DNA from: Eledone cirrhosa
Lineage: Eukaryota
Direction: 5' to 3'
Assembly: GCA_964016885.1 (NCBI GenBank)
Contig: OZ024741.1
Coordinates: forward strand, 238,328,001 to 238,392,000
Length of the DNA: 64,000 nucleotides
Positions within the stretch are counted from its first letter, which is position 1. Every line of letters begins with the position of its first letter. Positions 1,856 to 60,890 of the stretch are shown piece by piece. The notes under the pieces are model-generated. The model had not been told where the DNA came from. It made no database searches and was given only the letters and a program-made list of their open reading frames with translations. The translations under genes and the position numbers were made by a program.

Positions 1856-1985
1856 TTGTGCTTTTGTAGAAGTTTATGGTATGTGACAAGAGGACTACAT
1901 CATCTATGCACTGTTCGATGTAACTGCTGCAGCAATAATGTAAAAATGTTGATGGACTAGAAGAGGTGTGAGTCAGATAGGGAAG
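1856..1985 (-). promoter_or_regulatory. Protocadherin-type first-exon/promoter module, orphan copy 1
   Basis: Donor CAA|GTAAGT; + strand block TGTAACTGCTGCAGCA; TGAGTCA at 1969-1975 followed by GATAG. Same layout as the modules upstream of genes B-D. Confidence 0.6.
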
Positions 1986-4900
1986 AGAGAGCAGTTAACA
2001 TTTTTCTCTGCATTTCTATTATTGCATGATCTCCAAGTACAGTGAAAGTTACTTGAGTACAGAATAGCTCATTGTTCCATACATAAAATAGAAACTTCAG
2101 TTTGTATGCAGAGGGTATTCATAAATGCTTCCATAAAAACTTTACAAGTGAAATCATCTTTACACAAAAATTTTGTTTTGGTTCATTACATAGTGATTTA
2201 AATCTCAAGTTTTATCAAATAAAGTATACTAATTTTGCCCTGTCATATATAGTATATATATCAATAAGCAAGGGGAAACGAATATTGAAAACTTTCGCTA
2301 AATTCATTGTATATAAAGAACTATTAAATCAATGGTATAAATTAGTTTATGAAAATATTTTAAATAAAAACGTTTATGGGGGAATGATATTATTTGAATA
2401 TATTTCCACTTATTAGACAAAAATTAAATAGTAACTCAAAACGTAATTGTTTTGCTATACAGGTAAAAATGATTTAAAATGTATATTTTAATCTTTAATG
2501 GGTTGACTGAAAAAATGTTGACAGTACGATTCTTCCTTTGATAACTTCTGTTTCTTTAGATTATTCTTGAGTAGAAAACAAACATAATTTAGAAAATATT
2601 TAAATTCCTTATCTTTTGTTCATATTTACATGCTTTAATTCATGTTACAATCATCAGCAGATACCATAACTTATCAATATATATACATTATATTTGGTTG
2701 GGATTGAACTCATAACTCATAAAGGTTACAAATAAATTTTGATATATACTTGTAAAAGCTTTCGATATATAATGTGTACATATAAGTTGTTACATTTATT
2801 TATTTCTAAGGGGCCTCATAGCACCAGGAGAGGCCAAAGACTATAGCCAAACACAAAGATAAAAAATGAAAAAGCTATAAATAAATAAAGGAAATATCCA
2901 TAGAAACTTCCATCTAATAGCTGCTATTTCAGGATCTCTCATTTAATTGGATAAGTGATCATTTTAGTCTTTCTCTAAAAAGTTAACTCTCTGAAGAGAA
3001 AGAAATCTTTTACCATAAACAGAATTTTTAGCACAATTTGCAAGAAGCTTTACATATGTGGAACCATCAACTGGTAACATTTACACACATTAAAGAACAC
3101 ATAAATATGTCAGTCTCATCACAACAGTTACCATACTCTAGTTATATGTACCTGAGAACAGAACCATCCGGTGGTTACATTTACATACGTTAGAAATCAC
3201 ATAAGTATGACAGTTCCAGCATTCTCCTCTGTTAAGTCAACCCCAAAACTACCAAAATACAAAAATTATAGATAGTGTCAAAGCCTTCACTAGAAATATT
3301 GGTGACATTGAATTTATAACTCTAAGGGTTAGGGTTACAAATATAGTTTGATATACACTTGTTTATAGTGATATACACTTCAGTATATAGTGATGTGTAA
3401 AAGAAAGTTGTCACATATATTCCTTTCCAGAGGTTCCATAGCATCAAGAGAGGCATATATTAGAATATAGGTAAATGTAAGCTTAATAAAACCCAAACCA
3501 CCTCGGGGGGAAAAAAAAAAAAAAAAAAAAAAGAAATTTCAACAACTATCAAAATAATTATGAATATTCTCACTAGAAATAGTGGAGACTTATGTATAAA
3601 AGAAGTAATATTTATTGGTTGTCTGCAACCAGTTTATCAATCAACAAAAGCTTCTTAACTATCACCAATTTATTGCATAATTTAAATATTGCAGGCCTAA
3701 CATTCTTGCCATGCCTATGTGTCTCTGAACATACCTTAACAGATTTAGTATTGTTTACCGTATACTGCCCATTTAAAAAATTTTAGTTTAAGGTCAGAGC
3801 TTGTTAAAGCTGAAATAACTAAATATATTGGTTTTCTTTTTCCATTTATCTATAAAGCAACTTTTATCAACTTCCTCTTATTTGTTGCAATGACAAGTCT
3901 TCATGTATATATATATGTGTGTGTGTTTTAGCATCGTATATATTACTAAAATTGAACAAACTGCTACTCCGAGTTCATCTTTTGAATTTTTAGGCAATAG
4001 TGGAGTTACTATTGAGCATAAACGATGTATATATGGATATATATAATCATTATTTTACTCATGCTTTTTATGTTGCATGGTTTTGGCAGAGTGATTTGGT
4101 CTGTCAAATCCTATTTAGAATTACTGTTCTTGTAGACATTCTATCTATTTTTGGTATGGTTTCTGTGGCTTGATGCCCTTCTTAACACCAATCACTTTAC
4201 AGAGTGTACTGGGTACATTTTAGCATGGCATCAGTACTAGTAAGATTGTCTTGTGCTTCATTTTCAGGGCAACATGAGCATGAGGGTGAATAGAAGAATG
4301 GGCAATAACAGAAGAACCAAATTGAGGAGTTGAGAGGAACAGAACAGAGGAATAGGAGTTAGAAGGTAGTAGAGGAGAGAATATTGGAAGAGAGAGACAA
4401 TATATATATATCTTTCTTTTAATTTGTGTTGCTTAAGACAAGAGAAGCTTTTATCATAATTTCTACTATGCATTAAATAAAACAGGGTTAGTTATAAAAT
4501 ATGTAGCACTTTTTTGGCTTTATAGGAATATTATTTCAGCATTTCAGAGCATAAACATTTTCTGCTTTTTTGATGCTATATACATTTAATTATTTTTAAA
4601 ATATCCATACTTTATTTCTTTTGTAATAAACAGGTACTCTATCAGTTTCTTGATTTAGAAAATTTAGCAAATATCACTTAAATTGAATAATGTACCTAAT
4701 AGAACTGAATAATTTGAATCTTTTTATTCCATACTTTGGATGGAGACATCTCACCAAATTCTTTCTTCTCCCCTATTCCTGTTTTTGTCTCCCTTCACCT
4801 CTGATAATTTCACCCTGCTAACAGAAATGATTTTTCCCCAATGACACATAGTATTGGCATTCATGTTTTAGATTATATTTTTCTTTGGAATTTTATAAAA

Positions 4901-6222
4901 TTATATCTTCTGGAAAATTTATAAAATAAAAAAAATAAACATTTATTTGTTAATCTTTCATTTTTATTTGATTAAAAAAAATATCTTTAAATTAATCTGA
5001 CTATTCTCTAAACGATTTTTCTCTTTAGGTGATGAGTCAGTAGAAATCAGTGGAATTTTCAATGATTTGTGAACAGAAAATATAGTTTTCTTTTGTGTTG
5101 AATGTTGTTGGGAAAATATTAATCAAAATGCAAATAACTCATTTCCTCTGTTTTAAATGCAAATATAATCAAGAGAAGTAATGAATATAATTACATTTGA
5201 AACAGACCATTCATTACTCAGTTAAAACTTAAGTAGTATTATGTGATATATACTCATGTATGAAACATTTACAATGCACCATATATTTTGAATTGAGGTT
5301 TTGTAGGTACAGTAGATAGGTTGTGTGTTGGTTTTTCATGTTGAATTTCCATGGAAATAGGTGTGATTTAGACAAGTATATATATGGTGTATTGTAAATC
5401 TCAACTCCATTATCACTTTAACTTAATGTTGAATTTCTTCAAAAAAATATTCCCAATTTGTTAATTTATTAAAGTATATCTTCAGTTTTCATATAATTTT
5501 TATCTTACTTTTTTGATAACGAATTTCTCATAAAATAGAAAAATGTAGTCATTTAAAATATTCTATACAAACACCATGGATATGTTATATCATGGGATCA
5601 TAGGATTATTATTGCACACTGCTTTTCACAGTGATGACAGTTTGTCATTATAACATTCCACATTCTTTTATAAAGGGACAAAGGATTTGCCATTCCTTTA
5701 TCTTTATTTTTCCCCTACTTCATTCACTGCATCTCTTTGCCCCACTTTTAAAGTCATTGTTCTCTTCCATCTCTTTCATCATTAGTAGGATCCCTTCCCC
5801 AAATTTCTTTCTGCTTTATGATAGGTTCTATCTAAGGTTGTAGTTATCACTGTCATGACTGCTTGTATCTAAGGCTGTATAGTTGCTCCTTGGCTGCTGT
5901 TGTTGCAGCTTCTATAATAGCCACTACATGCCTTTTTCCCATCGGGAAATTATGGATTTTTCAATTTTGTTTTTTTATTCCTGACTGTTAACACTAAATT
6001 TTAACTGTATTATTAGAGTTTATTATTTTGTTAACTTTGCCTTTCATCCTTACGGGGTCGATAAAATAAAGTACCAGTAATGTACTGGGTAATAGCTGGC
6101 CTTGTGCCAAAAGTAGAAACAATTATTTTGGTATTATATTTTGCAGCTCATATTGACATATTTAATATAATTTTCACTGAACCAGTTGAAATAATTGACA
6201 AGTTTACTTATAATGTATAATG

Positions 6223-6560
6223 GAGGCACATGGTTCAGTGGTTAGAGCATTGGCCTTGCAATCGAAAGGTTGTGAGTTCAATTCCCAGAGCAGGTGATGT
6301 GTTGTTTCCTTGAGCAAGACACTTCATTTCACATTGCTCCAGTTTACTCAGCTGTAGAAATGAGATGATAGGGACTGGGGTCCATATCATTCCACTGCAA
6401 AGTGGTCGTGGAGGTGCCACGGCAAAAAAGCACCCAGCACTCACTGTAAATGAGGTTGGTGTTAGGAAGGGCATCCAGCTGTAGAAATCAAGCCAGAATC
6501 AGTTCCCGTCCCACCCTTGCAAGCAGGGAAAAAAATGGACGTAAAATGAAAAAAAAATAA
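6223..6560 (+). mobile_element. tRNA-derived SINE with a CORE-like middle and an RTE-derived 3' tail
   Basis: A box TGGTTCAGTGG and B box GAGTTCAATTCC; CCTTGAGCAAGACACTT middle; tail matches the 3' end of the RTE at 14.7 kb; TSD AATGTATAATG at 6212-6222 and 6561-6571. Confidence 0.8.
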
Positions 6561-11263: not shown

Positions 11264-12038
11264 TTATATATATAATCAACTACATATCGCTAGTGATTTA
11301 AGTCATCCAGTTTATGAGTTAAGATTTGTAATTTTATTTTTTTATAAATGATATCTAGTTAATTTAAAATCTGCTTTTAACCAAGATACTGTTTCCACTT
11401 TTAGACCAGTTTTCCTACTACTCTTGAAACACCTAAAAAAATCGGGGATATACCTGATAAATAAACCTTTTCTCACAAATATCATTTAATCATGAACCTG
11501 TTGTCAAACTTTCTGCTCTTAAAAAAATATTAAAGAAATGTCATATGCCTTTCTAAACAGATACTACTCAACATTTGTATAATACTAATTCTTCTATTTA
11601 TCATTTCTGTATGAATGGATAATAAAACAATAATTGTTTCTACTTTAGGCACAAGGCCAACAATTATCCAGTGCATTACTGGTACTTTATTTTATCGACC
11701 CCGTAAGGATGAAAGGCAAAGTTAACCTCAGCAGGATTTGAACTAAAACAATAATGACAAATAGTGTTAAGGGCAAGAGCCCAAATGTTAGTATTTTTTA
11801 TTTCCTCATGGCAACTTTATTTTTCTTGTTACCAATGCAAACTTACACTAGGTTTCTTCAATTTTGGATTTTACCCTAAACAATATCTGTAAAAGAACTT
11901 TAAAAAAGTGGATGCCTCATATTGTTACAACTTCTAGGTTATTGTTTAATACTTCTGGAAACATTTTGAGTATATTATGTGAAACTTATATAGGGTCATT
12001 GCAGAAAAGTTGAGAAGAAAAGCAATTAGAAGACTTAC

Positions 12039-12190
12039 CTACATAATTAACTTTTTTATTGTTGTTGGCTGTGATTGAATATGTCTTCCAATAGAACACT
12101 TCATATGCCATGTTAAAATAATTTTAATCTGATGGTTAAATATTGACTTAGTTGAAATAAGTATCATTACAACAGAGTTGTATTTGTGAG
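12039..12190 (-). promoter_or_regulatory. Degenerate first-exon module, orphan copy 2
   Basis: Perfect donor TAG|GTAAGT. Flanks align by eye to the 20.4 kb copy (TTAGAA-GACTTACC..CAT..TTAA..ATTGTTGTTG..AATATGTCT..AGAA). The CTG-rich block and TGAGTCA are not intact. Confidence 0.4.
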
Positions 12191-20427: not shown

Positions 20428-20545
20428 CGGCATTGTTTAATCCATTGTTGTTGTAATATGTCTAGAAACATGTATTCTTGTGTCATTGTAGCAGTAGTAG
20501 TAGTGTATATTGCTGGACCAGAGTTGTGAGAGTCAGATAGTGGGA
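20428..20545 (-). promoter_or_regulatory. First-exon/promoter module, orphan copy 3 (~600 bp past the gene A stop)
   Basis: Donor CCG|GTAAGT; CATTGTTTAATCC as in other copies; TGTAGCAGTAGTAGT; TTGTGAGAGTCAGATAGTGGG. Confidence 0.65.
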
Positions 20546-21134
20546 TTGAGTATATATTTATAGACGTATGGCTAATCATATTCAGATGTCTTCTAAACGT
20601 TTTCCTTCTCCCTTATTTAAAACTATATTTTAAATTTATTAAAGTGTTTTCCTTTTAATTTACTTTGAAGATATTTGTTATTCAAAATTTCTATTGAAAT
20701 GTTATCACTGTAAAAAAAAAAAGTAGCTGAGTTCCTTAAAGCAAAAGATAAACTGCTGGAATAGTATGTCTTTGAATCAGTTTCAGTTCAAAGTTATAAT
20801 CATTTCAGTATAATTGGAAAAAGCAACTAAATTATCTCTTTTTTTGTTAAGTCATTGATTATTATAAATATTAATTTTAGAAATGATTATTTATATGAAA
20901 TATATATTAATAAATGACAAAACAAATATTAAAAAAAATCAACTGAAGTTATAAGCCGGTATGAATATTAGATTAACTGCTATTTAGATTGTATATCAAC
21001 TATTGAAAATAACATATACAAATCTTTGTCGTTACTGAACTGAATATTGCAAGTGGAAATTATCAAATTATTGGTAGGATTTTGTGATTATTTGTGTTGT
21101 TCTCAAGAAGTAAACATAGTGTATTGGTTGTCCA

Positions 21135-21214
21135 CTATACAGGTTCTAGATAGGTTTCTTGTTCTTGGCTATGTTTTGGTGTTGGAGGTATGTTTGGTCG
21201 GTAGTTACTGTATT
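21135..21214 (-). CDS. PCDH: Protocadherin A, last coding exon (EYSNYRPNIPPTPKHSQEQETYLEPV*); spliced protein 879 aa
   Basis: TTTTACAG|AA acceptor matches the phase-1 donor; TAG at 21135-21137; conserved in all five units. Confidence 0.88.
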
Positions 21215-21847
21215 CTGTAAAAGATAAAAAAAACATAGTTTACTGTGATGTTTTCTAACAAGATGTATATTTCTTGTAAAGTTATTTACTAACTTTTTAT
21301 AAAGATACTAGTAGAAATACAACTTTCCAGGCAACTTCTTGCTGGTTTATTTTTGTGTGTGTGCATTTTGTGATGTATAGAAATGTATGAAAAGGGAAAA
21401 CTACATTTTTGGTATGTCTCGTGGTTTATTTAATATGATGGTGTATATCTTCTTCAAAATAGTAACCCCAACTTAACTAAGCAAAGAAGGGATATGAATA
21501 AATAAAAGCATGATAGAAACAGCGTAGCACCGCACCTCTAAAGAGATTCTAAATGAAATTATATTTTTATTGACACTCGAATACTATATAGTCACTATTC
21601 TAGGAAGATGTGGTGTAGCAAATCACTTATAGATATAAAAAAGGGTAAAATTTCTTTCATAATGTGTGAACAATACAAATTTGCAACAACATATCTAATT
21701 TTGGAGTATTTACATTAATACTAAAGTACGATACTTATATTTGCTATCATTTTTGTCAGCATGAATATACTTTGTGTGTTATATTTATCGTGTTTGCCTT
21801 TTCTTCAATTTAACCACAACAAACAAACTTCACTTTATATATATATA

Positions 21848-22705
21848 CAGGGTGCGGACAGTTCGCAATTTTCAACTGCTAATTTTATGCAAATTTTACT
21901 TCCATTGTCACTCTTGTCATAAAAACAGTGACTATATTTCCATTATTTATTTTCAGAATAATTGATTATGAATAATTTTGAACCTCCAAATTTGTGGAAG
22001 AGACACAGAGTTCTTCTTGGAATCCGCGCCGGGAGGACAAATAAGACCAGAAGATCAACTCCCAGAACAACAGGTGGCGAGGCTGTCTCATCCAAAGACG
22101 TGTCCAGAGTCATGCAGACAAAGTTTCCAGCGACAACATTGGTCTTAGGTGTCGTCATGCCACCTCACTTCTTCTCTGAGGGCCTCAAGCTGAACACCGA
22201 TGGCTACCTCTGCATTCTGAGCGAGGTAGTAAAGCCCTGGATCGACCAGCTGCAGGTAGGCCATAAGTGTGGCAGCAAGACTCAGCGCCCTGCCATACCA
22301 GTTGAAAGACCCAAGCCTGGCTGTCAGAGAACTTCGTCGACCACACTTCACCTGACATCTGGCCTCCCAGCTCGCCTGACTGCAACCCCCTCGACTTCTT
22401 TGTGTGGGGCGCAGTGGAACGAGACACCAACAGATCTAGCTGCAATACAAAAGATGATCTGAAGGCCAGGATCACAAGTGCCTTTAGGGGCCTAAGTCGG
22501 GGTACAGTGACGAAGGCCTGTAGCCGGTTTCGAGGCCGCCTTGAGGCCGTCATCAAAGCCAATGGCGGGTTTATCGAGTGAGATCGAAAGAACAAGTCAT
22601 GAAGACAAACTGACCCAAGTTTGATAAATATATCTTAAAAAATAAAACTAGTGTGTTATTTTTTCCTAGACAGTAATCTTGCAAACAGATATTGTCCACA
22701 CCCTG
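21848..22705 (+). mobile_element. Internally deleted Tc1/mariner element of DD37D (maT) type, in the last intron of gene A
   Basis: TIRs CAGGGTG(C/T)GGACA flanked by TA; WQQDSAPCH...WPPSSPDCNPLDFFVWG with 37 codons between the catalytic aspartates (one is a stop). Confidence 0.88.
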
Positions 22706-23216
22706 TATATATATATAATGTGAGTAATATTAAATATTATCCAATAACAAGTATATCACAGAGTCGAAATACTTTATAAATAACAAAGAGTGTTTAAAAT
22801 ATTTACAATCGTTTCATCCTAGCTCAAGGCTGGATTCATCGGAGTATATAATATATATATATATGTTGGTGGCTGAGTCGTGTATTGCTTATAAAAGTGA
22901 ACATAATGTTTTGATTACAACAGTAATTTGAACTCACACTAATGAGATTTGATTTCTCAGATCAATTTAATACTGTCTGATATATCAGAAATCTGTGCTG
23001 ACACTTGCACAAAATTTCACATTATTATTATAGATTTTTGTTTCACAGAAGCAAAATAGCTTTGTTATTTAGCTAAATAAAAAAAATTCATTTATATAGT
23101 TTATTTATTTTATAGTTTATATTAAAAAAAATAGTATAAATCAACATTTGAATTGGATTTTTGAAATGGGTTTTGATTCTTTCCAGTTTGAATATTCTGA
23201 ATTATTGTGTCATTAC

Positions 23217-23376
23217 CTGATGCTCCACATTTCTGATGTGTAATATCTCCTTCACTCCACCCACGGTTCCGTTCTTTCAAAGAAGGTAGTGTATCATTCA
23301 GGTTGTTTGATGTCACAGTACTAGTATTATAACATTTTTGTTCAGCTGAACTCTCTGCTGCATCTTTATTGTAATG
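23217..23376 (-). CDS. PCDH: Protocadherin A, cytoplasmic exon 2 (160 nt, HYNKDAAESS...RNRGWSEGDITHQKCGAS)
   Basis: GACAG|CAT acceptor and CAG|GTAATG donor; in frame with the large exon; homologous exon found in all five units. Confidence 0.88.
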
Positions 23377-29321: not shown

Positions 29322-29455
29322 CTGCATTTTAAAATCCTTCTCACATGTTAAACTGCGAGGGGGAGATAAATACTGATGTAGTGTTCTTCTTTGACTGCTG
29401 CTGTAGTAGTTCAGCAATAGCTGTGGGATGGGGAGGGAGTGGGAGGCAGAATCAC
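29322..29455 (-). promoter_or_regulatory. Non-coding first exon/promoter of protocadherin A
   Basis: Donor CAG|GTATGT; shared block GTAGTGTTC...ACTGCTGCTGTAGTAGT at 29378-29410; no clean TGAGTCA. Confidence 0.65.
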
Positions 29456-29944: not shown

Positions 29945-30024
29945 TTATACAGGCTCTAGATAGGTTTCTTGTTCTTGTCCGCTCTTTGGTGTAGGGGGTA
30001 TGTTTGGTCGGTAGTTGCCATATT
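29945..30024 (-). CDS. PCDH: Protocadherin B, last coding exon (EYGNYRPNIPPTPKSGQEQETYLEPV*); spliced protein 872 aa
   Basis: TTCCAG|AA acceptor; TAA at 29945-29947. Confidence 0.88.
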
Positions 30025-30413
30025 CTGGAAAATATATAAAATCGTAAGATCACTCTACGAGATGAAGTTAGATTTCTTTCTGTGACAAATATTTGAAGGC
30101 AATTATTGTATACATTTGTGTATAAGTCCCCTTGGCTGATAAAGGGAAGTTCTATTTTAGATGCAATAATTACAATGTAACATGTTTTGAATCAAATTAT
30201 TTTAGGTCCAGTAGATATTTTCCATGCTTATTTTTTTCATGTCATATTTTTGTGTAAAAATATGACTTATACATGAATATATACAGTAGATACTTTTAAA
30301 AGTTCATTATTTTACAAATTAATAATAAAAAATGACTTTTACGATAAATGTGCTTCTTTAGAGAATATTTTGATTCTTTGCTGTTTGAATTTCCTCATTT
30401 ATTTCATTATTAC

Positions 30414-30570
30414 CTGATGCTCCCATTGTTTGATTTGTGATATCCCCCTCACTCCAACCACGGTTCCGTTCCTTGTTATAGGGTAGTGTGTCACTCAGAT
30501 TGTTTGATGCCACAATACTGTCACATCCTTTCTGTTCAGCAGAACTCACTGCCACATTCTTATTGTAATG
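30414..30570 (-). CDS. PCDH: Protocadherin B, cytoplasmic exon 2 (157 nt, HYNKNVAVSS...RNRGWSEGDITNQTMGAS)
   Basis: TTTCACAG|CAT acceptor and CAG|GTAATA donor; overlaps ORF 30358..30555. Confidence 0.88.
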
Positions 30571-38471: not shown

Positions 38472-41278
38472 TGCTGTAATCTTAATGAGTTTTAAAAATT
38501 GTTAATATCTGAAATTTAATAGAATATTCATTTTTGAATAGCATAAAATTAGCAGTGCACTCTTGAAACAAAATATCTACATTTCAAAGTCTCACATTTT
38601 GAGACCTTTTTACATTCTCATAAAATTTCTCAAAATCTACTCATTTGTTTAATGTATAATGGATTAATTTGTAGATAAGTGACAATTGGAATGTTTCCCT
38701 TCACCTTAATTGATGGATGGAAACATTTTGGTAAGAATTAGTTTTAATGTGCAGTTTGAATTTATAAAGGCCATTTATTGAGTAGAAAATACAGGAAGTT
38801 ATTTACTTATAGTAAGGATGAAAGAATGATCAGTGTGATTTGTGTAGTATCTGGATGTGATCCACTGGAGATTGAGAATAGGAGCTATATGTAAGACATG
38901 TTTATAGAATTTGCAAGTTCAGTATATGAAGGCATATTTAATGTTTATAAATTATAAAAGGCTTATGGCCTGGAATTATATTTAATGTTTAGAGTATGCA
39001 CCACATGCTTGATGTATGTGTTTTAAATTGTGCATATATATTTTAGGTACATTTAGATGTTATAAACATTAAGAATGAATGCTGTATGGCATTCCATAAA
39101 ATATTCTATGGTAGTGGCAGAAGAAAGAGTGAGGATGTGGCAATTAGTTTGAGTTTTGGTGAGTTCTGGATTGTTTTTGAGGCAGATAGCCATTTTCAGG
39201 ATGCTATCTATAATACGAATCTTTGGTGAGACCACTATCACAAATCATTTGATCAGTGCAATCAAAGACATAGCAGAACCTCTTGTACTTAAAGTTACTG
39301 TAATTCACCCTCTATTATCCTGAGCATTATTGCCAGCAGATACTTCTCATCCCAGAGCTATTTGCAAAAGATAAGTGAAGCCGCTGAGATTCTTAATGTT
39401 TCTCATTAAAAAATTTAGTTAATGAAATGTTTTTTCATTCTTTTGAGCATATGTATTTTCAGTATTGACTGAATAAAGTAATACATGAAGGTGAATTTGT
39501 TTAAATTATTAACTTTTCACAAAATTCTGCCATCAGAGCTTTCACTCAATTTATTGCTATTTTTACCTGAATGAAAGAAATAATTTACTTAAAATAAGTT
39601 ATGTCATTCCTGTAAATCTAGTTCAATAATGTTATATTATATTCTAGATGAAAGAAGGCAGGAAATGGTGAAATGTTGACTAAATGTAATACAATAAAGA
39701 CGATTTAAGGAGATTCATTTTTATTCCCTTATATTTAAATCTCCTCTGTGTGTGTAAGCTGTTAAAGAACTTGAACAAAAGTGGATGGCCTATGCTGAAG
39801 TGAAGTGAGGAGCTAAATGGGGGATGTTAATTTACTTCCAGAATGGACTCCCAAAGAGACTCTTACCTGTGAGGGATGAGGACGTGTATGATTGTCAAAA
39901 GCTGGGCTACTAAGCCACAGAAGACATTATATTCATGGAAATGACATCTTTGAATACCCTATATACTTTGGTTTTGCATGTAGCATCTATCTATACTGAA
40001 GTGTGTTGCTCTGCAGGATGGCTAAGATGTCACTGCAAAGCATGCCATGCCAGTGAAACTCAAGTAGACAGGAAACTTAATTCCACACTGTATGGAATGA
40101 CATGTAAGTTAGTTTCACGTTTGATGAGCTATCTAAGTTGGCATCAGCAACAGCACATTTTTGTCAATGTCTGTTTTTTCTAAGATATGGTTGTACATGG
40201 ACACAAGTTGGATTCCACTAAGTATGCATATCAATGAACTCATGGAAACACATATAGAACAATAGATATATTAAGCAATTTTAACAATCTCTTAATGACT
40301 TCATGGCTCTCTCCTGTTGTCATTTTACATTTGTCATAATAAAATCAAACTTAATGTATTGATTAAGGAAGGATTTGGATCTAGACTCTGGAGATAAAGG
40401 TGATTTTACTGATATTATTAATATATACAAAGATACCTATTTTCTTATACTGAATTTATAATGAAATAGAAGCACTTGATGAAAAGGTATTAATAAGCTG
40501 CAAAATGTTCCTATAATTATATTTTTTTGTAAATATATGTATATTGGAATATATATGTGTGTGTTCATCTACACACGCATATTGACACACATCATAATTC
40601 ATCAAAACATGAGGTGAAAATATTTAAAATGAAATAAAGAGTTATCTAAGTAATAGACATGGAACAGTTTTGAAAAACCAAGATTACTCCTGGCAAAATA
40701 TATATGATAAAGACTTTTGTGAATGATAATTAATGTATGGATGCATCTAGTTATGAGATTTTCTATTTGTATAATTATATAACAGATTCGACTCAGATGT
40801 TAGATTATTAAAAGATATTTGTATTTTCTTTTATTTTGATAACTAATCATTTGGGTTATTCAAAATGGATTTCTAAAGCAAATAAAACAATTACCCATAA
40901 AATGGTAATTTTGTTCATTCTCTAAAATTTTCACATTAAAGAAAAAGATGTTTAAATCATCATTATGATTATAGCTGTTATTAGAAATAATATTGTGCAA
41001 CATTAGTTTTGTAATTTGTTTTTTTCTAATATTAATTTGCAAGCATGTGTATGTGTGTGTGATATTTCTTGATTACCATAAGTTGTTTCCATAATTGAAA
41101 GATTTGTTCTAGAATTAAAAGAATTATACACACACAAATACACACATGGACACATATATTATATAGAAAGAGGAAGCCATTATTTGAAACAAATCCTATA
41201 TTACTAGTGATCAAACATTGTTTTCTGTTTAAACTACATCATTTCATGCCATAGCAATATATAAAACATTATATATTC

Positions 41279-41497: not shown

Positions 41498-41640
41498 CTT
41501 CATTGTTTAATACATTGTTTCCATGGTATGTCACTAGAGACATGAATATTGGTGTAGTGTTCCAGTGTAGCTGCTGCTGTAGTAGTCCAGTTAACGCTGT
41601 GTGTTGATGGACTGCAGTTGTGAGTCAGATGATAGGAAGT
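41498..41640 (-). promoter_or_regulatory. Non-coding first exon/promoter of protocadherin B
   Basis: Donor AAG|GTAAAT; GTAGTGTTCCAGTGTAGCTGCTGCTGTAGTAGT; TGAGTCA at 41621-41627. Confidence 0.7.
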
Positions 41641-42786: not shown

Positions 42787-42866
42787 TTATACAGGTTCTA
42801 GATAGGTTTCTTGTTCTTGTCCACTCTTCACTGTTGGAGGTATGTTTGGTCGATAGTTGCCATATT
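42787..42866 (-). CDS. PCDH: Protocadherin C, last coding exon (EYGNYRPNIPPTVKSGQEQETYLEPV*); spliced protein 879 aa
   Basis: TTTTACAG|AA acceptor; TAA at 42787-42789. Confidence 0.88.
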
Positions 42867-43216
42867 CTGTAAAATATATAAATATTAAAATGATATAGTT
42901 TTATTTTTCTGTTTTATTAGGGAGGGAAGAGGAGTGCCCACAAGCATTTTTAAGGTTCTCTGATATTGATTAAAAGGAGAGAAGTTATCCTCAAACCAGA
43001 GACCTGATTTGAATGTTTGCAAAAATGTGGACTTTGCTAAATGTGCCCAAGGGCCAAGTAGGGATATTAAGCTGGGTAGGAGATTAAGTACCAATTTGAG
43101 ACAGAAAAAGAGAAACAGACCAATTGATGAGGCTTGTTTGACATATTTAATGTTAGTTTCTATTCTAAATTAATTCAATATTTTTGTAAAATGTTTTATG
43201 CTTTGTGGAAAATATA

Positions 43217-43400
43217 ATAATTGTTTCTACTTTAGGCACAAGGCCAGCAATTACCCAGTGCATTACTGGTACTTTATATTATTGACCCCGTAAGGATGAA
43301 AGGCAAAGTCAACCTCGGCAGGATTTGAACTCAGATCGTAAAGGGACGTAACTATGCTGGAAAGCATGGCGTCCGACCCTCTACCGATACTGCCAATCCA
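43217..43400 (-). mobile_element. tRNA-derived SINE, second family, in the last intron of gene C
   Basis: Matches 12913-13099. Confidence 0.85.
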
Positions 43401-43535
43401 TATAATAATATTGTGCATTACATGTTGAAAAACTATTATATTTATAATAATGAATATATTTTATTTTCATTCAGTTCAGATTAATATTATTTTTTTATAA
43501 CTTCCATTAGAATATCTTGATTATTCTGTAATTAC

Positions 43536-43695
43536 CTGATGTTCCATATGTCTGATGTGTAATATCTCCTTCACTCCATCCACTGTTACGTTCTTTCTGA
43601 GAAGGTAAAGTATTATTCAAGTTGTTTGATGCCATAGTATTATCATTATAACATTTTTGTTCAGTTGAATTCTCTGACACATCTTTATTGTAATG
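43536..43695 (-). CDS. PCDH: Protocadherin C, cytoplasmic exon 2 (160 nt, HYNKDVSENS...RNSGWSEGDITHQTYGTS)
   Basis: CTGACAG|CAT acceptor and CAG|GTAATT donor; translated by hand with no stops. Confidence 0.88.
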
Positions 43696-46895: not shown

Positions 46896-49295
46896 CTGAG
46901 GAACTGGTGGTAATCTTCTCGGTGTTGTTGAGAATTTCCATTCATTGGTTAACTGTTCCATCTCTGGATAATATGGACTTTTAGGGCTTATTGACTGAAG
47001 ATTTCTAGCAAACATATCGTCTGCATTTCTGGTTATTGCAACAGGATTGTTGGTATGATACAGTATTTGTCTCATCTCAGTCGGAGATAGGAATTTTGGA
47101 TTATCTGTTGTTGTAGGTGAGTTATTGGTGTGATTAATACATCTGAAAACACACAGTGTTATTGACACTACAATAGCCACAGATATTATTACAGCTGCTG
47201 CTACAATGATAATTACCCAAGTCATATTGAGGTCGTTACCAGACTGTAAGTGGACAGCATTCAACATTGGAGATGTATCATTACTAACAAACAGTGTTAG
47301 TATGATAACAGTTGTTGCTGATTGAACTGGAGTGCCACCATCTTTCACTATAAACTGTAGGTCATATGTTCCTGCATCATTTTGGTAAACTGTCCGAGAG
47401 AAAGATAAGACACCAGTATGGGAGTTGACTGTAAACAGGTTTTTATCATTAGATCTCAGTATTCCATATGTGAGGAAAGCATTGTTTCCAGTGTCTTTGT
47501 CAGAGGCTTTCAGAATTGTGATGTCTTTCTTACTGTGTGGATCATAGTGGACATCTAGATTGTAAGGGTCATTAATAGGAAAGGTAAAATAGGGAGCATT
47601 ATCATTTTTATCTAGAATCTCAATAAGAATATTGGCAGTGTTATTCAGAGAAGGTGTTCCATTATCTTTGACTAAAATCTGGAATTTATAGATGTCTTTC
47701 ACTTCCCGATCTATTGATTGTGATGTAGAAATAAATCCATATTTTGTAAGTTGGAAAGGAATGTTATCATTGTTGTTATCATTGATGATAGAATATGTAA
47801 GTTGACCTCCATCTTCAAGATCAGGGTCTGTAGCATTGATGAAGCCAATAGGGAAGTCAACTTTCTGGTTTTCATAGGTGAGGAATTGGAATGTATCTTT
47901 GGTAAAATGTGGCTGTACATCATTAACATCAGTTACTTTGACAGAGAATTGTTTCTTAGTCTTTAACTGAGGTGATCCCATGTCATGACATACAATAGAT
48001 ACAACATAGTGATCTATAGTTTCTCTATCAAGAGGTTCTTTCACCAATATTTTATATTCTTTAGAACCCATATTAGAAAGTTGAAACATTTTATGGTGAA
48101 TATTACATTTAATTTGTCCATTAGGTCCACTATCAGTGTCAATGACCATAACATAAGCTATAAAACTCCCTATTACACTTGCTTCTGAAATAGCAGTAGA
48201 GGTTTCTGTTAAAGGAGACACAAAATCTATATTTATAGTAGGGGCATTATTTTGATTGCTAATTACATTAATATTTAATATTGCTGTGGAACTTAATGAA
48301 GGAATCCCCCCATCCCTGGCTTCAATGTATAATTGGTATTTACTTTCTATATTTCTGAAGAAGTTATCATTAATAAAAATTTCTCCAGTTTTGGAATTTA
48401 ATTTTAAATGTTTTCTAGCATATTTATTTGTATTTCTATGTAAATAGTAAGTAATATTTCCATTTTGACCAGAATCTAAATCTGTAGCTGATAAAACAAA
48501 CATGGGAGAAGATATGTGATGTGTATCACTGATGGTGATATTGTATATTTGTTGGGTAAAAGTAGGTCTGTTATCATTGACATCTATAACGGATATTTCT
48601 ATGTTTAGAATTCCTTCTTTTGGAGGTGAACCTCCATCTTTAGCCACCAACTCTAACATGTAAGTGTCTTTTAATTCTCTGTCTAACTTATTTTCAAGCA
48701 TTATTTCTAATATGTTTATTCCATCAGATTCTTTAAATATGGACAGTGAGAACTTTTTACTTTTATCTTTGAGTTTATATATGATGTTAGAATTGATAAC
48801 ACCAATGTCTTTATCAACAGCATTTGGTATTGATTTTGTTGATCCCTTTCCCTCCCTTTCACCAAACTGTATTTGTAATTGATTTCTTGGAAATTCTGGT
48901 TGGTGGTCGTTGATATCTTGTATAATTATTTCAATCTTTAATATCTTCAGAAATGTTTCTGACTTCCTCACAGCTACTTTAACAACTCTGGAACATTCCT
49001 TGTTATATGTACACAGTAACTCAGCATCCAGTGTCTGTGTAGTGTATAGTTTTCCTGTGTTGGTGATATTAAATAAGTGAGAACCACTTGACACTGTCCT
49101 TTGTAGTTGTGTAAATGTAATGAGAGTGTGTTGTTGATGTGTGAGAGAGTGTGTTAAGTTAGAATCAACAGCAATATCTCCTATATAGGTGTGAGGACTG
49201 TCTTCTTCATTGACATGGTAGGTAATATCTATGGACACAATGGAATACATCAATCCAAAGAGAAGGTAAAATTGTAAGGTGTTGATTATAATCAT
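46896..49295 (-). CDS. PCDH: Protocadherin C, large coding exon (800 codons)
   Basis: ORF 46842..49295. Donor CAG|GTATGT. Two candidate acceptors upstream of the ATG (exon start 49328 or 49334). Confidence 0.95.
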
Positions 49296-51211
49296 TGTTG
49301 TAATTCATTATTATTCATGAATATATATCTAAACCTATAAAGAAAGTAAAGCAAATTGATTTAATCACACAATCATTTGTAAATGTTTAAATTTATTCCT
49401 TCTTTAAACCTAGTATATCACATTTAAAACCTAAGCAATAATGCATTGGAGACTTCTCTAACATTCTCAAATAATGGGTTAATTCAATAAATCAAAAATT
49501 GTTAGATAAAATTTGGTGGGCTATCACCTTTGCTGACAACAAAGATTTTTTTGTCTGTGCCTAGGCCAGATTGTCCCATGTTTTTTGTATATATGTGTTT
49601 CTCTGTGGAGTGAGATGTAGGTCATGAATGTTGTTAAAGTGTATAAAAAAAATACTCTGCTTGTATGAATATGTGATGTCAGTTGTATAAAGAACAGCAG
49701 AGTTCTCAAAATGGATTGAACCTATTGAAGTGGGAGTCTACAGAAGAAATGTTTCAAAATGAAGACTGATCCGAAGATGTTGAAACAAACAAAGAAGTTG
49801 GCAAAGAACTGTGATTAATGGTATGGTGCTATGCCAGAATGAACCCATCCAACTCTTGCCAGCATGATAAAACACACAAGTATGATTGATGATAATAGTA
49901 ATAGTGATAAATATTGGGAAGCATAGTATTAACATTTAGCTTTTTTCCCAACTGTTATACTCATATTAAGTCTTATAGCACTCTTCCACTTTCTTCATTA
50001 GTGTCTCATCTATTTCTCACCCAATCTCCTATCAATGTATAAAATTATGAATGTTAAGGCAAAGGTGTATTGCTTACAGTGTTAAATTTAAATGTAATGC
50101 CATTTGTGTACTAAGGGATGGCATCACATTAGATCTACCTATATGTAATCCCAATTTGCCATCACCCCTTTTTATTGCTAGCCATCACTCTCTTTCTTCT
50201 CTCCCCGATCACTCACTATTGATTTCTATCAGTCCTATTATTAATTATTTTAGTATAGTCGAAATGTGATTATTTAATTTGAAAGATCAGTTTAAAATTT
50301 GGATGTTACATTACTGATGTATGCTAGAAATGAAACAAAATTCTTCAGTAAGCACCCCCTATAAAAGTATGAATGTTAAGACAAAGGTGTATTGCTTACA
50401 GTGTTAAATTTAAATTTAGCCATAGAATTTATGGAAAAGAACGACTGTGCATCCTCTAAGAAATTTGTTGAGAGCAGCATTAGCTCATGGAAAAAAGAAT
50501 GAAGCCCAACTGCAGAAAATTCCAAATGATAAGCAATCTATAAAGGGATGAGTTTTTGTAACAACATTGTATGTAAAATTACAAACAAATATATACAAGC
50601 TAAATCAAGATGGCGGGAATTACTTGGAGATGATGAAAAAGGTTTTGATGGTTTTTAAGTGATAAACTCATTTTGTGAAAAATGAATGTTTTTTAACCTA
50701 CCCTATGGATAATAATATATAACAGAGATTATCCTTACCTCTGGAAATTAATATATATTTATATTAGTGAAATTAATTAAAAAAATATGTACCTAAGGGT
50801 CAAAACCAACATTTAAAATCTGTTTAATGTGTAACTTAATGCTGAATGAAATTATATTATATTTATCTATGCAGATGATACAATATGTTTTGGTGAATGG
50901 ACAATATTTCCTGTTTAAACTGACATAGAAAAATATATTATGCTATGGAATATAACATTATATATCTAAATACAGTCAACTGAAATCAGTAATTGAATAA
51001 TGGTAGTTGTTAAAAATATCTTCCTTCTTAAACTGACTATATACACTACTGCAGTAACAATTGCCTATGGTAATGGCTAAATCTTTATAAGTATCTCTAT
51101 TTCTGACTCTATATGCATTATAATGAATGACACTTTAGCTATTATCTATTATCGTACTTCAATATCAAACATATAGTATCAAATATAAAATTGCAATGTA
51201 AAATGACTTAC

Positions 51212-51350
51212 CTACATTATTTAATCCTTTGTTTGTGTCTCTTACAGAAGACATTTATTCTGACGTAGTGTTCCAGTGTAACTGCTGCTGTAGTAGTGTG
51301 ACAATGGCAGTATCTTGATGATGTAGATTTGTGAGTCATAGTGGGAGCCA
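51212..51350 (-). promoter_or_regulatory. Non-coding first exon/promoter of protocadherin C
   Basis: Donor TAG|GTAAGT; GTAGTGTTCCAGTGTAACTGCTGCTGTAGTAGT; TGAGTCA at 51332-51338. Confidence 0.72.
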
Positions 51351-52436: not shown

Positions 52437-52525
52437 CTATTTTTTATACACAGGTTCTAGATATGTATCTTGTTCATGTTCACCTTTTGGTATTGGTGGT
52501 ATGTTTGGTGTGTAGTTGCCGTATT
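52437..52525 (-). CDS. PCDH: Protocadherin D, last coding exon (EYGNYTPNIPPIPKGEHEQDTYLEPVYKK*); spliced protein 878 aa
   Basis: CTTCCAG|AA acceptor; TAG at 52437-52439. Confidence 0.86.
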
Positions 52526-52802
52526 CTGGAAGATAAAGAAACATTATAAATAGTATGAATAATGGATAGTTTTCTCAAAAGAAAATGCCTGCTTCTGAAT
52601 TAATATTACATGGGTATTAAATTAGTTTTTATGAAACATTTAGCTGCTTATATTGAAACACACCTTTTAAATAGTTTACATGTGTATTTTATATAATCCC
52701 TTTTGTATAACAATTAAAAAGCTTCAACATAATGAATATAGAATTGTATCAGTTAGATTATAAGGAATTTATATTCACTGCTATTGATATTTGGCAAATT
52801 AC

Positions 52803-52950
52803 CTGATATCTTATGCGTGATATCACCTTCACTCCATCCATGGTTGCGATCTCTTTGAGATGGTAATGTATCATTTAGGTTGTTTGATGTCCCAATACTG
52901 CTATTATCCTCTTGCTCACGAGACCCATCTGAAATCTGTTTATCATAGAT
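52803..52950 (-). CDS. PCDH: Protocadherin D, cytoplasmic exon 2 (148 nt, IYDKQISDGS...RNHGWSEGDITHKIS)
   Basis: GACAG|ATC acceptor and CAG|GTAATT donor; in frame. Confidence 0.86.
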
Positions 52951-55554: not shown

Positions 55555-57954
55555 CTGGGGAACAGGTGGCAGCCTCCTGGGTGTTGTTGAGAATTTCCAT
55601 TCATTGGTTAACTCTTCCATCTCTGGATAATATGAACTTTTAGGGTTTATTGACTGAAGATTTCTAGCAAATATATCGTCTGCATTTCTGGTTATTGCAA
55701 CAGGATTGTTGGTGTGATACAGTATTTGTCTCATCTCAGTCGGAGATAGGAATTTTGGATTATCTGCTGTTGTAGGTGAGTTATTGGTGTGATTAATACA
55801 TCTGAAAACACACAGTGTTATTGACACTACAATAGCCACAGATATTATTACAGCTGCTGCTACAATGATAATTACCCAAGTCATATTGAGATTGTTACCA
55901 GTCTGTAAGTGGACAGCATTCAACATTGGAGATGTATCATTACTAACAAACAGTGTTAGTATGATAGCAGTTGTTGCTGATTGAACTGGTGTACCACCAT
56001 CTTTCACTATAAACTGTAGGTCATATGTTCCTGCATCATTTTGGTAAACTGCCCGAGAGAAAGATAAGACACCAGTATGGGAGTTGACTGTAAACAGGTT
56101 TTTATCATTAGATCTCAGTATTCCATATGTGAGGAAAGCATTGTTTCCAGTGTCTTTGTCAGAGGCTTTCAGAATTGTGATGTCTTTCTTACTGTGTGGA
56201 TCATAGTGGACATCTAGATTGTAAGGGTCATTAATAGGAAAGGTAAAATAGGGAGCATTATCATTTTTATCTAGAATCTCAATAACAATATTGGCAGTGT
56301 TATTCAGAGAAGGTGTTCCATTATCTTTGACTAAAATCTGGAATTTATAGATGTCTTTCACTTCCCGATCTATTGATTGTGATGTAGAAATAAATCCATA
56401 TTTTGTAAGTTGGAAAGGAATGTTATCATTGTTGTTATCATTGATGATAGAATATGTAAGTTGACCTCCATCTTCAAGATCAGGGTCTGTAGCATTGATG
56501 AAGCCAATAGGGAAGTCAACTTTCTGGTTTTCATAGGTGAGGAATTGGAATGTATCTTTGGTAAAATGTGGTTGTACATCATTAACATCAGTTACTTTGA
56601 CAGAAAATTGTTTCTTAGTCTTTAACTGAGGTGATCCCATGTCATGACATACAATAGATACAACATAGTGATCAATAGTTTCCCTATCAAGAGGTTCTTT
56701 CACCAATATTTTATATTCTTTAGAACCCATATTAGAAAGTTGAAACATTTTATGGTGAATATTACATTTAATTTGTCCATTAGGTCCACTATCAGTGTCA
56801 ATGACCATAACATAAGCTATAAAACTCCCAATTTTACTTGCTTCTGAAATAGCAGTAGAGGTCTCTGTTAAAGGTGATAAAAAATCTATATTTATATTTG
56901 GAGCATTATTTTGATTGTTAATTACATTAATTATTAACATTGTTGTAGAACTTAATGAAGGAATGCCACTATCCTTAGCTTCAATACACAATTGGTATTT
57001 ATTCTCTATATTTTTAAAGAAATCTTCATTAGCGAAAATTTCTCCACTTTTAGGATTTATGTTGAAATATTTTCTAGCATGTTTATTTGTATTTCTGTGT
57101 AAATAGTAAGTAATATTTCTATTCTGACCAGAATCTAAATCTGTAGCTGATAAAACAATTACAGGAGAAGATATATGGTGTGTGTCACTGATAGTAACAT
57201 TATATGACTTTTTATTAAATATTGGTGGGTTATCATTGGTATCTCTAACAGATATTTCTATGCTTAGAATACCTTCTTTTGGTGGCGAACCTCCATCTTT
57301 AGCTACCAACTGTAGCATATAAGTGTCTTTTAATTCTCTGTCTAACATTTCATTTAAAGTTATTTTAAGTAGTTTTATTCCACCAAATCTTTTAGACATG
57401 GATAATAAAAATTTCTTACTTTTATCTTTGAGTTTATATGTGACATTTGAATTGAGAACACCAATGTCTTTATCAACAGCATTTGGTACAGATTTTGTTG
57501 AGCCTTTTACATCTGTTTCATCATATTGTATTTTTAAATGATTTCTTGGAAATTCTGGTGCTTGGTCATTAATATCTTTTATTAATATTTTAATTTTCAA
57601 TATCTTTATAAATGTTTCTGATATTCTTATTGCGACTTTAACAACTCTGGAACATTCCTTGTTATATGTACACAGTAACTCAGCATCCAGTGTCTGTGTA
57701 GTGTATAGTTTTCCTGTGTTGGTGACATTGAATAAGTGAGAACCACTTGACACTGTCCTTTGTAGTTGTGTAAATGTAATGAGAGTGTGTTGTTGATGTG
57801 TAAGAGAGTGTGTTAAGTTAGAATCAACAGCAATGTCTCCTATATAGGTGTGAGGACTGTCTTCTTCATTGACATGATATGTAATGTCTATGGATACAAC
57901 AGAATATATCAATCCATAGAGAAGGTAAAATTGTAAGGTGTTGATTATAATCAT
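55555..57954 (-). CDS. PCDH: Protocadherin D, large coding exon (800 codons)
   Basis: ORF 55465..57954. Donor CAG|GTACCT at the homologous position. Acceptor TTTTCAG| at 58172, displaced by a SINE in the 5'UTR. Confidence 0.93.
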
Positions 57955-57982
57955 TGTTCCTTTTCATTATTATAACTCATAA

Positions 57983-58145
57983 TGGATTGGCAGTATCAGC
58001 TTTGCAACAAAGAGTTACGGCCCTTTATGGTCTGAGTTCAAATCCCGCAGAGGTTAACTTTGCCTTTCATCCTTACAGGGTCGATAAAATAAGGTACCAG
58101 TAATACATTGGGATAATTGCTGGCCTTGTGCCAAAAGTAGAAACA
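57983..58145 (+). mobile_element. SINE inserted in the 5'UTR of protocadherin D, antisense to the mRNA
   Basis: 17-bp TSD ATTATTATAACTCATAA at 57966-57982 and 58146-58162. Confidence 0.9.
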
Positions 58146-59934
58146 ATTATTATAACTCATAAATCCATATATCTGAAAAAATAGAGGGCAGAAATTATAC
58201 TCAGTTTGATGAACCAGCCTGACTGCTTGCAATAAAGTGGACTAAAGGCACTCAAGTGCCGAGGGATTCAGTTGAAGGATTGTTACGCTTGTTGTTACAG
58301 TATTTAAATTCAGATCACAACTAGAGACTTGGAAAATCTACAAATACTGATGATGTAGAAAGCTCATACAAAAAATATTAAAAAACAACCATAGATTGAA
58401 CATTTCTCTTACTTTGAGACTATATTATCACTTATTTTAAAATATGATAATTACATTCTATTTTCTGTTTGATGTTGTATTGCTTTAAAAATAATTCAGA
58501 AATAATCACTAGTTCTCCAGAATTGTATTTTTGCAGTCTTCCAAAACTATTCCGAGTTATCTCCCCCTCTCAAGATTGCATATTTCATTGAATCTTTTTG
58601 TTTAGGTAATTAATGTATGTAGAAGTTTCTATGGAAGATGACACGATTTTGTTCTATATTATATTGAAATGTTTAAACTGTCTTAACATGGTGGAGATTA
58701 GTTTCTGTTGAAATTCAATGTTTTTAATCTATGTCGAAAGGAATTCTGTTATAAGATAAATTGTATCTATGATATATAAAAATAAACATCTATGTTCATG
58801 ATGTTAAGTTTAGTTTGAGTAGATCTAATCATCTTTGGTCATGAACATATAACAGACGTAGTCCTATAACAGATGCCTGTTGATATTAAAGTCAGTTACT
58901 CACTTTCATATCAACAGGCATCTTTAGGATCAACTAGAGTTGATACTCAAATACTGAGCATGAATATATGGCTATTAATTGTGATTATTTTGGTGTATAT
59001 GCGTATTTTGTTAAGAGTAGGTCAGTTAATGTTTTTGCTTGATGTTTAAATATTTTTCTTGATGTTTGTATGTTTGAACTTATAAACATGTGATATGTGT
59101 TGTTGTGGACTTTGATGCATCATAATCCCCATATGTTCATGTTTCTATATGTTGTGTATTTTTAATATTTGGTAATATGAAGTGTGTGATTTGTGAAATT
59201 ACTAGACATGTTTGACATAATACTTGATAGAGATATTTGTAGTTGATTGGAAACTGTGTATTTATTTAAATAAAATGTTGACTGAATATTGGTTAGCTCT
59301 GTGCATATGTATTTAATGATCATTATAATTCGGTTTTTATGTTCACTATATCTGTGAAAATACAGTTCAGAAGCTTTACAATATATAGGTTTTTGTTTAC
59401 AAATCAAATTTGTTCAGGCCTAAATGAGTAGCAGTAATGAGATAGTAATTACTGATTATTTAATATCTCTTGGGATTCATATATATTGTAGAAAACTGAT
59501 CAATCATCATCATCATCATTTAACAGCCATCTTCCACGCTAGAATAGGTAGGACGGGCTATCCGTTTGTGAGAGATCAGGTTGGCAGACTGAGATTCGCT
59601 CACACAGAACTGATTTTGGTTTGGTTTCTACGGCAGGATGCCCTTACTAACACCAACCACATTTACAGTGTGTGCTGGGTGCTTTTTATCATGACACCTA
59701 CACGACCACTATATAGTGTGGGCTGGGCTCTTTTGTCATGACTTCAGTGGGGATCAATATATATATAAATCCTCATTACTTGATCAAAATGGGGACAGAA
59801 GGTTTTAATTTAACCCCAGATGAAAATATAAAAAAAATCAAATTTATTTATATTAGTGGGCAAAAGAAAAGTAATTGCAATTATATCATGATCATCATCC
59901 TTTTACATCTATTTTTCCGAGCGTCTAAAGTATA

Positions 59935-60215
59935 TCTGAAGCCTAGGGCCTCACTAGATTGGTGCTTATCCTGGTTCCCTTGGTGTTTAGTGACTGAGCA
60001 TAGAAGACTTCCCCCTGGACAGATTTAAACCCCCAGCTATGGCTAGTATACATTTTCAGCTGAGTACACTTGAGCAATGTGAAATGAATTGTCTTGCTCA
60101 AGAACACAACACATAACCTGGTTCTTAATGTTGTGTGTTTGATTCTTATCAAACACACAACATTATGACTGTAAGTCGAAAACCCTAAACACAGGGCCAC
60201 ACACCTTCACCATGC
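59935..60215 (-). mobile_element. Diverged CORE-like tRNA SINE
   Basis: Reverse complement contains GTTGTGTTCTTGAGCAAGACAATTCATTTCACATTGCTC, as at 6.3 kb. Confidence 0.7.
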
Positions 60216-60748
60216 TTACATAATAATAAATATAAAAAATATGATGAATTAAATTTCAAGGAAATGCTAATGTCTTTTTAGTTTTTATAAAGGTAAATTT
60301 ATGAGAAGTAGAGTTAATTGGTTGATGAGTAATATAGTATATAATTATTCTATATCTTGAAACTTTGAATAATATTCAAGCAGTACTTGTAATTAATAGA
60401 CTAAATGTAAAGAAATGATGATAATAATAATGTCCCCAGTTGAAAAAAAAATGTTACATTAAGAAGCAGAGCAATAAATATGAAATTATATTCTTAAATA
60501 CAATAAATTGACAGATCAATATTTTCATCATGGTTGTTGTTAAATATATCTTCCTTCCCAAAGTAATTATACTACTGTAGTAGTAGTAATTGTTTGTGGT
60601 AATGGCTACATCATTCTCTGGCTATCTATTTTCTAGTTTGTATATATTATCATGCATACACTTTCATTTATTATCTATTTATATAAATCGCTATTAAATA
60701 TATATTACCAAAATATTCAATACAAAATTGCAATGTAATGTGACTTAC

Positions 60749-60890
60749 CTATATTGTTTAATCCTTTGTTTGTGTCTCTTACAGAAGACATTTATTCTGA
60801 CGTAGTGTTCCAGTGTAACTGCTGCTGTAGTTGTGTGACAATAGCAGTATCTTGATGATGTAGTTTTGTGAGTCATAGTGGGAGCCAACT
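60749..60890 (-). promoter_or_regulatory. Non-coding first exon/promoter of protocadherin D
   Basis: Donor TAG|GTAAGT; nearly identical to the 51.2 kb copy; TGAGTCA at 60869-60875. Confidence 0.72.

Follow-up and report, generated by a model that had tools for sequence, protein, structure and literature searches.

What is the short non-coding element that recurs at the 5' end of protocadherin (Pcdh) genes in the genome of Eledone cirrhosa? Cephalopod protocadherins number 150–300, and the question is raised by a 64,000-nucleotide stretch of contig OZ024741.1 (assembly GCA_964016885.1, positions 238,328,001 to 238,392,000 of the forward strand; hereafter the window), in which four long minus-strand open reading frames (ORFs) encode protocadherins. 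A first-pass annotation had described a ~130-nt module (module A below) repeated from gene to gene, and read it as a shared promoter cassette built around a position-fixed AP-1-like site. Our analysis of the DNA sequence suggests a different answer: the module is most probably the non-coding first exon of the protocadherin genes and, with somewhat less assurance, a duplicated leader exon in which a predicted upstream ORF (uORF) spanning the splice junction would act as a translational brake.

Four profile hidden Markov models (HMMs) located six full copies of the module in the window, at 1850, 20421, 29316, 41492, 51205 and 60742. The seven copies claimed earlier were not confirmed: a single further candidate, weak and degenerate, matches in the donor half only (12031–12083, minus strand; E=0.004 in the window), where an ATG-TAG is followed by GTAAGT. 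Most details of the earlier description held: TGAGTCA (TGACTCA on the genes' strand) is found at 1969, 41621, 51332 and 60869, with the minus-strand donors (1856, 41498, 51212 and 60749) respectively 113, 123, 120 and 120 bp away; the 20.5-kb copy has a 2-bp insertion (TGAGAGTCA at 20527); the heptamer is missing from the 29.3-kb copy; and the 51.2- and 60.7-kb copies are alignable beyond the module, over ~1.1 kb at 72%. The word TAGTGGG, said usually to follow the heptamer, does so at only two of the four perfect heptamers and at the 20.5-kb variant. Of a 33-bp block within the module, the occurrences at 41554 and 51265 are exact, that at 60802 differs by one change and that at 29378 by seven, and those in the 20.4- and 1.9-kb copies are more degenerate.

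In the 864 kb around the window (sub-array S1), 52 modules were found together with 52 protocadherin N-termini and 52 matches to exon B, a coding exon described below. A single module lies between neighbouring genes, with three exceptions: two modules (at 1.9 and 20.4 kb) precede the gene just left of the window, and none was found before two upstream genes. The full set comprises 82 copies, from S1 (29 in its left, 4 in its middle and 19 in its right part), S2 (9), S3 (10), S4 (10) and S5 (1, a stand-alone module copy). In 100-kb samples of S2 and S3, an S1-derived HMM recovered one homolog per gene; in S4 it gave weak donor-half matches in 4 of 10 genes, the remaining copies being found via the family motif. 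Two single Pcdh genes have stand-alone copies far upstream, at 83 and 93 kb. These counts bear out the earlier description of a per-gene module at the 5' end of protocadherin genes.

The genome was also scanned for a spread of the module independent of protocadherins, and matches were confined to the arrays. A block common to S2 and S3 gave 79 genome-wide matches and the S1 core pattern 36, all of them inside protocadherin arrays and on the genes' strand (minus), with no match to either reversed control. A DNA search returned at least 31 matches and, among the matches listed, all were at C2 238.0–239.0 Mb. The donor-side pattern is less specific, with 44 of 77 matches in arrays at ≤2 mismatches (control, 13) and 31 of 33 at ≤1 mismatch. 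A dispersed repeat or transposon is very unlikely, as the core matches lie only within Pcdh arrays and on one strand. The module would instead have spread by whole-gene tandem duplication, followed by purifying selection.

Several features point to a first exon. Every one of the 82 copies ends, on the genes' strand, in a canonical GT donor (GTAAGT in 64, GTAAGA in 7, GTAAAT in 7 and GTATGT in 4), and donor columns +1 to +3 show no change on a 75-row protein tree. The cadherin exons carry an acceptor ~30–60 nt before the main ATG, the intron from module to ATG would span ~1.7–13 kb, and the stretch from the stop of one gene to the following acceptor showed no other conserved donor. When a representative of S1-right is compared with S2 and S3, whose proteins are 55–58% identical to it, the module aligns with z scores of 7.4 and 10.3 relative to shuffles, whereas the upstream and intron flanks give −1.8 to 0.7; the module alignment with S4 is weaker (z −1.2 to 5.1). 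More broadly, the module is alignable between sub-arrays with 51–61% identical proteins and the flanks mostly are not. Within a 25-nt block, 23 positions are identical in 43 S2 and 27 S3 copies, the pattern having been chosen after seeing the alignment. Homology fades ~10 nt upstream of TGACTCA, so that, unless transcription starts within the module, little conserved promoter exists upstream of it, and a TATA box is found in only 2 of the 82 copies. Since most of the module lies between heptamer and donor, it resembles an exon rather than an upstream promoter, unless transcription starts far inside it. Transcription would begin near the 5' edge of the module, ~130–140 nt before the donor, and this exon would then be spliced to the large cadherin exon.

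Two other identities for this A/C-rich module were rejected. A coding exon was ruled out because exons P, C and B already complete the coding sequence and the module, which varies in length, keeps no common frame. A structured RNA element was ruled out by the absence of Rfam matches in the window and of any pairs in the consensus fold of nine copies.

The position of the module could also be explained if it were the 3' end of the gene upstream, either a 3' untranslated region or a read-through exon: 51 of the 52 S1 modules lie 0.6–4.5 kb past the last coding exon of the previous gene, the module at the array end follows a gene and has none nearby downstream, and PMC9712504 mentions octopus PCDH models fused by read-through. 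However, the 1.9-kb copy precedes a gene and has no exon B within 19 kb, the acceptor of each cadherin exon needs an upstream donor, and the stand-alone copies lie 83–93 kb upstream of single Pcdh genes. We regard this explanation, together with that of a dispersed repeat, as hardly tenable.

A few observations weigh against the first-exon reading. Several modules (the 20.4-kb copy in the window and the one at the array end) have no nearby protocadherin exon, which is compatible with long first introns, and nine acceptors were unassignable by the fixed rule used to choose them. Weak support for the exon comes from two sequencing runs (X1 and X2), guessed to be RNA and labelled as another organism, which reached depths of 14 and 17 in the bin containing the 60.7-kb module and 0 in bins 58675–59241 and 60943–61500; contigs from these runs covered module bins at ≥90% identity, with an X2 contig over 51250. 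The empty intron bins may reflect sequence divergence, and no joint between a module and a cadherin exon was seen in the 15 joints displayed (959 others were undisplayed, and repeats swamp the joints), which counts neither for nor against the exon. As these data are contigs only, the start of transcription is placed from sequence.

The first-pass annotation gave the key role to the heptamer, proposing an activity-regulated promoter cassette with paralog-specific loss of its AP-1 site. TGA(C/G)TCA is the consensus of the AP-1 (Fos/Jun) tetradecanoylphorbol acetate response element (TRE). In agreement with that proposal, TGACTCA lies 116–133 nt from the donor in all 19 S1-right copies, all 9 S2 copies and two further S1 lineages (2 of the 4 S1-middle copies), and the half-site TGAC is common to three sub-arrays, as would fit a basic leucine zipper (bZIP) protein. 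All 10 S3 copies (C2:239.95–240.23 Mb, L121–L130), which lack the upstream ATG discussed below, have TGACGTG at the same place, a word that we take to be bZIP-like or cAMP response element (CRE)-like. Against it, the heptamer is present in only 30 of the 82 copies, being absent from all 29 in S1-left, where the genes are mostly intact, and from S3 (0/10), S4 (0/10) and S5 (0/1). Between 20 and 31 of the 139 7-mers in each reference exon are kept in as many deep lineages as TGACTCA or more (retention counted anywhere in the last 260 nt), those ranking above it including GCAGCAG, TCCCACT, CATCAAC, TGTCACA and AACAATG. The block identical between S2 and S3 adjoins the heptamer without including it, and the window holds 8 TGA(C/G)TCA sites compared with 7.1 expected from base composition, showing no enrichment. 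The heptamer also reads as an initiator-like TCAC, on what we take to be the initiator consensus, which has ~2.4 chance matches per module.

The fixed spacing of the heptamer follows from the homology of the duplicated genes, and the site does not qualify as the defining element of the module. Around the presumed start, TGACTCA stands among other semi-conserved words, and two entire subfamilies at least can do without it. A bZIP half-site in the module is possible, AP-1 control and activity regulation are unsupported, and a promoter cassette with AP-1 as its key site appears improbable. Transcription starts at or just upstream of TGACTCAC would mark this word as an initiator region, and starts 30–70 nt downstream would mark it as a proximal promoter site.

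Other words were noted outside the module. GTGAGGCTG is found upstream of it in both S1-left and S2 (L037–L050, L111–L120), and many S1-left copies have ATTGG, presumably a CCAAT-box-like word, further upstream; both are possible promoter elements. In the 29 left-hand genes (C2:238.02–238.30 Mb; L034–L050, L071–L081), tandem repeats of a CAGCAGTTACACTGGAACAC core enlarge the leader exon, and exon C is undetected by HMM.

At position −6 from the donor, 58 of the 82 copies carry an ATG, which had been missed in the first reading. The base at −3 is a purine in all 58, compared with 51% for intron ATGs, although the 58 descend from one ancestral site and are not independent cases. After in-silico splicing with the fixed acceptor rule, 34 of the 40 S1 copies holding this ATG could be scored, those dropped being three without an acceptor by the rule, two with an uncalled neighbour gene and the 20.4-kb orphan. 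The untranslated lead between acceptor and main ATG is 2 mod 3 in length (29, 32, 35, 38 or 41 nt) in 32 of these 34, and in 27 the TGA of the uORF overlaps the main start (ATGA). Among the remaining seven, four are ATG-TAG and the others end at +1, at −2 and 89 nt into the coding sequence, respectively. The scorable S1 copies without the ATG (n=10, mostly one clade) have leads of 2 mod 3 in three cases and 0 mod 3 in seven, and a G follows the main ATG in 7 of the 10; in the sole holder with ATGG, the uORF stops 2 nt earlier. Nine non-redundant leads, start-stops excluded, contain one stop in the uORF frame, compared with 9.4 in shuffled leads (P=0.0005) and 8.0 with random frames (P=0.002). 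The two distant single genes have leads of 47 and 56 nt, both 2 mod 3, with pairing assumed over 83 and 93 kb.

Scanning ribosomes would meet the upstream ATG first, translate ~8–16 codons and terminate at the main start or shortly ahead of it, with the ATGA overlap in most array genes; the protocadherin would then be reached via leaky scanning or reinitiation. In the part of PMC5972666 consulted, AUGA is a stop-start arrangement and overlapping uORFs are expected not to allow ordinary reinitiation, and for this reason damping of translation is the likelier net effect of the predicted uORF.

The six window copies, all on the minus strand, vary in this respect. The copy belonging to the gene at 57954 (60749–60885; TGACTCA at 60869–60875, donor GTAAGT) has lost the ATG, as has that of the gene just left of the window (1856–1986; TGACTCA at 1969–1975), whose acceptor is 2.0 kb away and whose lead is 45 nt. 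For the gene at 49295 (51212–51348; TGACTCA at 51332–51338), an ATG-TAG start-stop at 51212–51217 is followed by the donor GTAAGT. The module of the gene at 38471 (41498–41638; TGACTCA at 41621–41627) has its ATG at 41501–41503 and a predicted 10-codon uORF ending 10 nt before the main ATG; that of the gene at 26625 (29322–29455), where the heptamer is TGCCTCC, has its ATG at 29325–29327 and a predicted 13-codon uORF ending 2 nt before the main ATG. The copy at 20428–20548 (TGACTCTCA, donor intact, upstream ATG at 20431–20433) has no Pcdh exon of its own, and no protocadherin remnant was found in the 18 kb below it. It may serve the gene just left of the window as an alternative first exon: splicing its donor in silico to that gene gives a 20.6-kb intron and an in-frame 17-residue extension.

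The uORF might instead be incidental to a leader exon and core promoter kept only for transcription and splicing, with the donor-side ACAATG a nucleic-acid-binding word (we take ACAAT to be Sox-type) or neutral. Much that weighs against a functional uORF speaks for this alternative. The ATG has been lost more than once and is missing from 24 of the 82 copies, among them every S3 copy (10 of 10); its columns, which change 3, 4 and 7 times, are no better kept than the neighbouring GGATT (3, 4 and 4 changes in columns −14 to −12); and many other upstream ATGs are tolerated in the leaders. Further against a functional uORF, its peptide is not conserved, and the four ATG-TAG copies of S1 would encode no more than a start and a stop. 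The exact ATGA overlap occurs in none of the six window copies, the uORFs of S2 and S4 stop 9–72 nt before the main start (S4 at 9 nt), and the leads of S2 show no frame lock, a single case there reading in frame under the fixed acceptor rule. With start-stop copies included, the stop deficit has P values of 0.05 and 0.11; as the leads are homologous, all these P values overstate independence, and GAA/AAT slippage, which favours 3-nt indels, could mimic frame keeping.

An incidental uORF is nevertheless at odds with the retention of ATG where ACAAT is broken (AATAATG in seven copies; TAAAATG, AACCATG and AGTAATG in one each), and with the behaviour of columns −8 and −9, which change 10 and 4 times. 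It is at odds also with the S1 frame lock and stop deficit, and with the leads of 0 mod 3, most of which accompany a lost or stopped ATG. On balance we consider it unlikely. Whether the −6 ATG itself opens a functional uORF appears evenly poised.

Pfam cadherin repeats and Cadherin_2 were found in the two window ORFs scanned, and the nearest Atlas clusters of the window proteins are mainly molluscan. The large cadherin exons end in PPVPQ, followed by GT, and two more coding exons, the conserved blocks C and B, bring the spliced proteins to their full 872–879 aa. On the minus strand, the large coding exon of the first gene runs from its ATG to the PPVPQ donor at 55555–57954, with the acceptor at ~58172, past a repeat insertion, and its exons C (52803–52950) and B (from 52525, with the stop) lie within 52437–52950, giving a spliced ORF of 878 aa. 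The second (large exon 46896–49334, including a 39-nt lead; ATG at 49295) has exons C (43536–43695) and B (from 42866) within 42787–43695 and encodes 879 aa. The third (36090–38508, including a 37-nt lead; ATG at 38471) has exons C (30414–30570) and B (from 30024) within 29945–30570 and encodes 872 aa, and the fourth (24226–26663, including a 38-nt lead; ATG at 26625) has exons C (23217–23376) and B (from 21214) within 21135–23376 and encodes 879 aa. The protocadherin genes of the array carry their own cytoplasmic exons; shared constant exons were ruled out, exon B being private to each gene. Exon C is also present in 24 genes from the window rightwards.

Further observations were made on these genes. 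The four window proteins (24226–57954) are near-identical from the fourth cadherin repeat onwards, as far as the end of the exon, and most of their differences fall in repeats 2–3; gene conversion or diversifying selection would give such a pattern. A short high-copy repeat at 57970–58160, flanked by a 15-bp direct repeat, lies within the untranslated lead of the 57954 gene, and the lead that goes with the module at C2:238460064 carries a similar insertion; the −6 ATG is lost in each of these two genes. Damaged protocadherin copies (frameshifted, partly deleted or fragmentary) at C2:238155030–238156815, 238299048–238299188, 238445139–238447639 and 238582711–238585298 are either pseudogenes or assembly errors. 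Within the gene left of the window, an intron contains a 554-codon ORF (L031, C2:238320428–238322089) that, by eye, we take to resemble a retroelement reverse transcriptase.

An array-specific leader exon would offer a handle for start-site mapping, for reporters and for gene-specific 5' ends by which paralogs can be told apart. Should the uORF be translated, this large family of neural genes would possess a built-in translational brake, kept, shortened or lost by paralog, and natural paralog pairs make this brake directly testable. A more ambitious proposal, which we hold doubtful, is an ancestral leader exon with a dual role, in which a 5' start-site code (the TGAC half-site, CCATCAACA and GCCATTGTCAC), re-tuned by subfamilies to an AP-1-like, a CRE-like or no site, would be combined with a 3' junction uORF overlapping the Pcdh start and setting paralog dosage at translation. 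Dosage would then depend on keeping, stopping or losing the uORF, and could respond to eIF2-alpha signalling or neuronal RNA editing. About 21 protocadherins are expressed per octopus neuron (PMC9712504).

Tandem whole-gene protocadherin arrays are already known in cephalopods, as are leader exons and uORFs as kinds of element. In the coleoids described by Albertin et al. 2022 (PMC9068888, consulted in part), protocadherins form sub-arrays of head-to-tail, multi-exon whole-gene duplicates on one chromosome. The present 3.0-Gb genome fits this arrangement: scoring 150 of 255 candidates gave at least 121 EC1 matches, most of them within arrays on contig C2. Supplements aside, the consulted part of that paper describes no shared leader exon, promoter element or uORF, and a literature search, with subscription papers (e.g. 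Wang and Ragsdale 2017) and supplements outside its scope, returned no description of a leader exon, promoter motif or uORF for cephalopod protocadherins.

Compared with an AP-1 TRE, the module has the exact consensus at a homologous position in 30 of the 82 copies, but the heptamer is neither array-wide nor better kept than neighbouring words. The predicted uORFs resemble stop-start uORFs (AUGA/UGAUG, as in the SLAMF1 uORF and ATF4 uORF2) in that a short upstream frame ends with a stop overlapping or abutting the main start. They differ in being split by the first intron, with two codons in exon 1, and in being repeated over dozens of paralogs with no conserved peptide.

The closest parallel is the conserved sequence element (CSE) of vertebrate clustered protocadherins, a CTCF-binding element that keeps a fixed distance to the start codon downstream of it (PMC7811963, in the part consulted). 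The likeness to a CTCF-binding element suggested by the first-pass annotation did not hold: the module is CpG-poor (0.66 per 150 nt), a CGCT box occurs in 1 of the 82 copies, and the module ends in a donor that a 1.7–13-kb intron separates from the ATG, so that the distance to the ATG is not fixed. CTCF-like matches, on what we take to be the consensus, were found in 28 of the 82 modules compared with 32.6 in shuffled ones, and are not in excess. Unlike the vertebrate clusters, the array genes have their own cytoplasmic exons and no shared constant exons, in agreement with the consulted part of PMC9068888. Like the CSE, as far as the consulted text of PMC7811963 describes it, the module is a conserved non-coding element that each tandem paralog carries once, at its 5' end; if the dual-role proposal were true, it would be a CTCF-free counterpart of vertebrate promoter choice.

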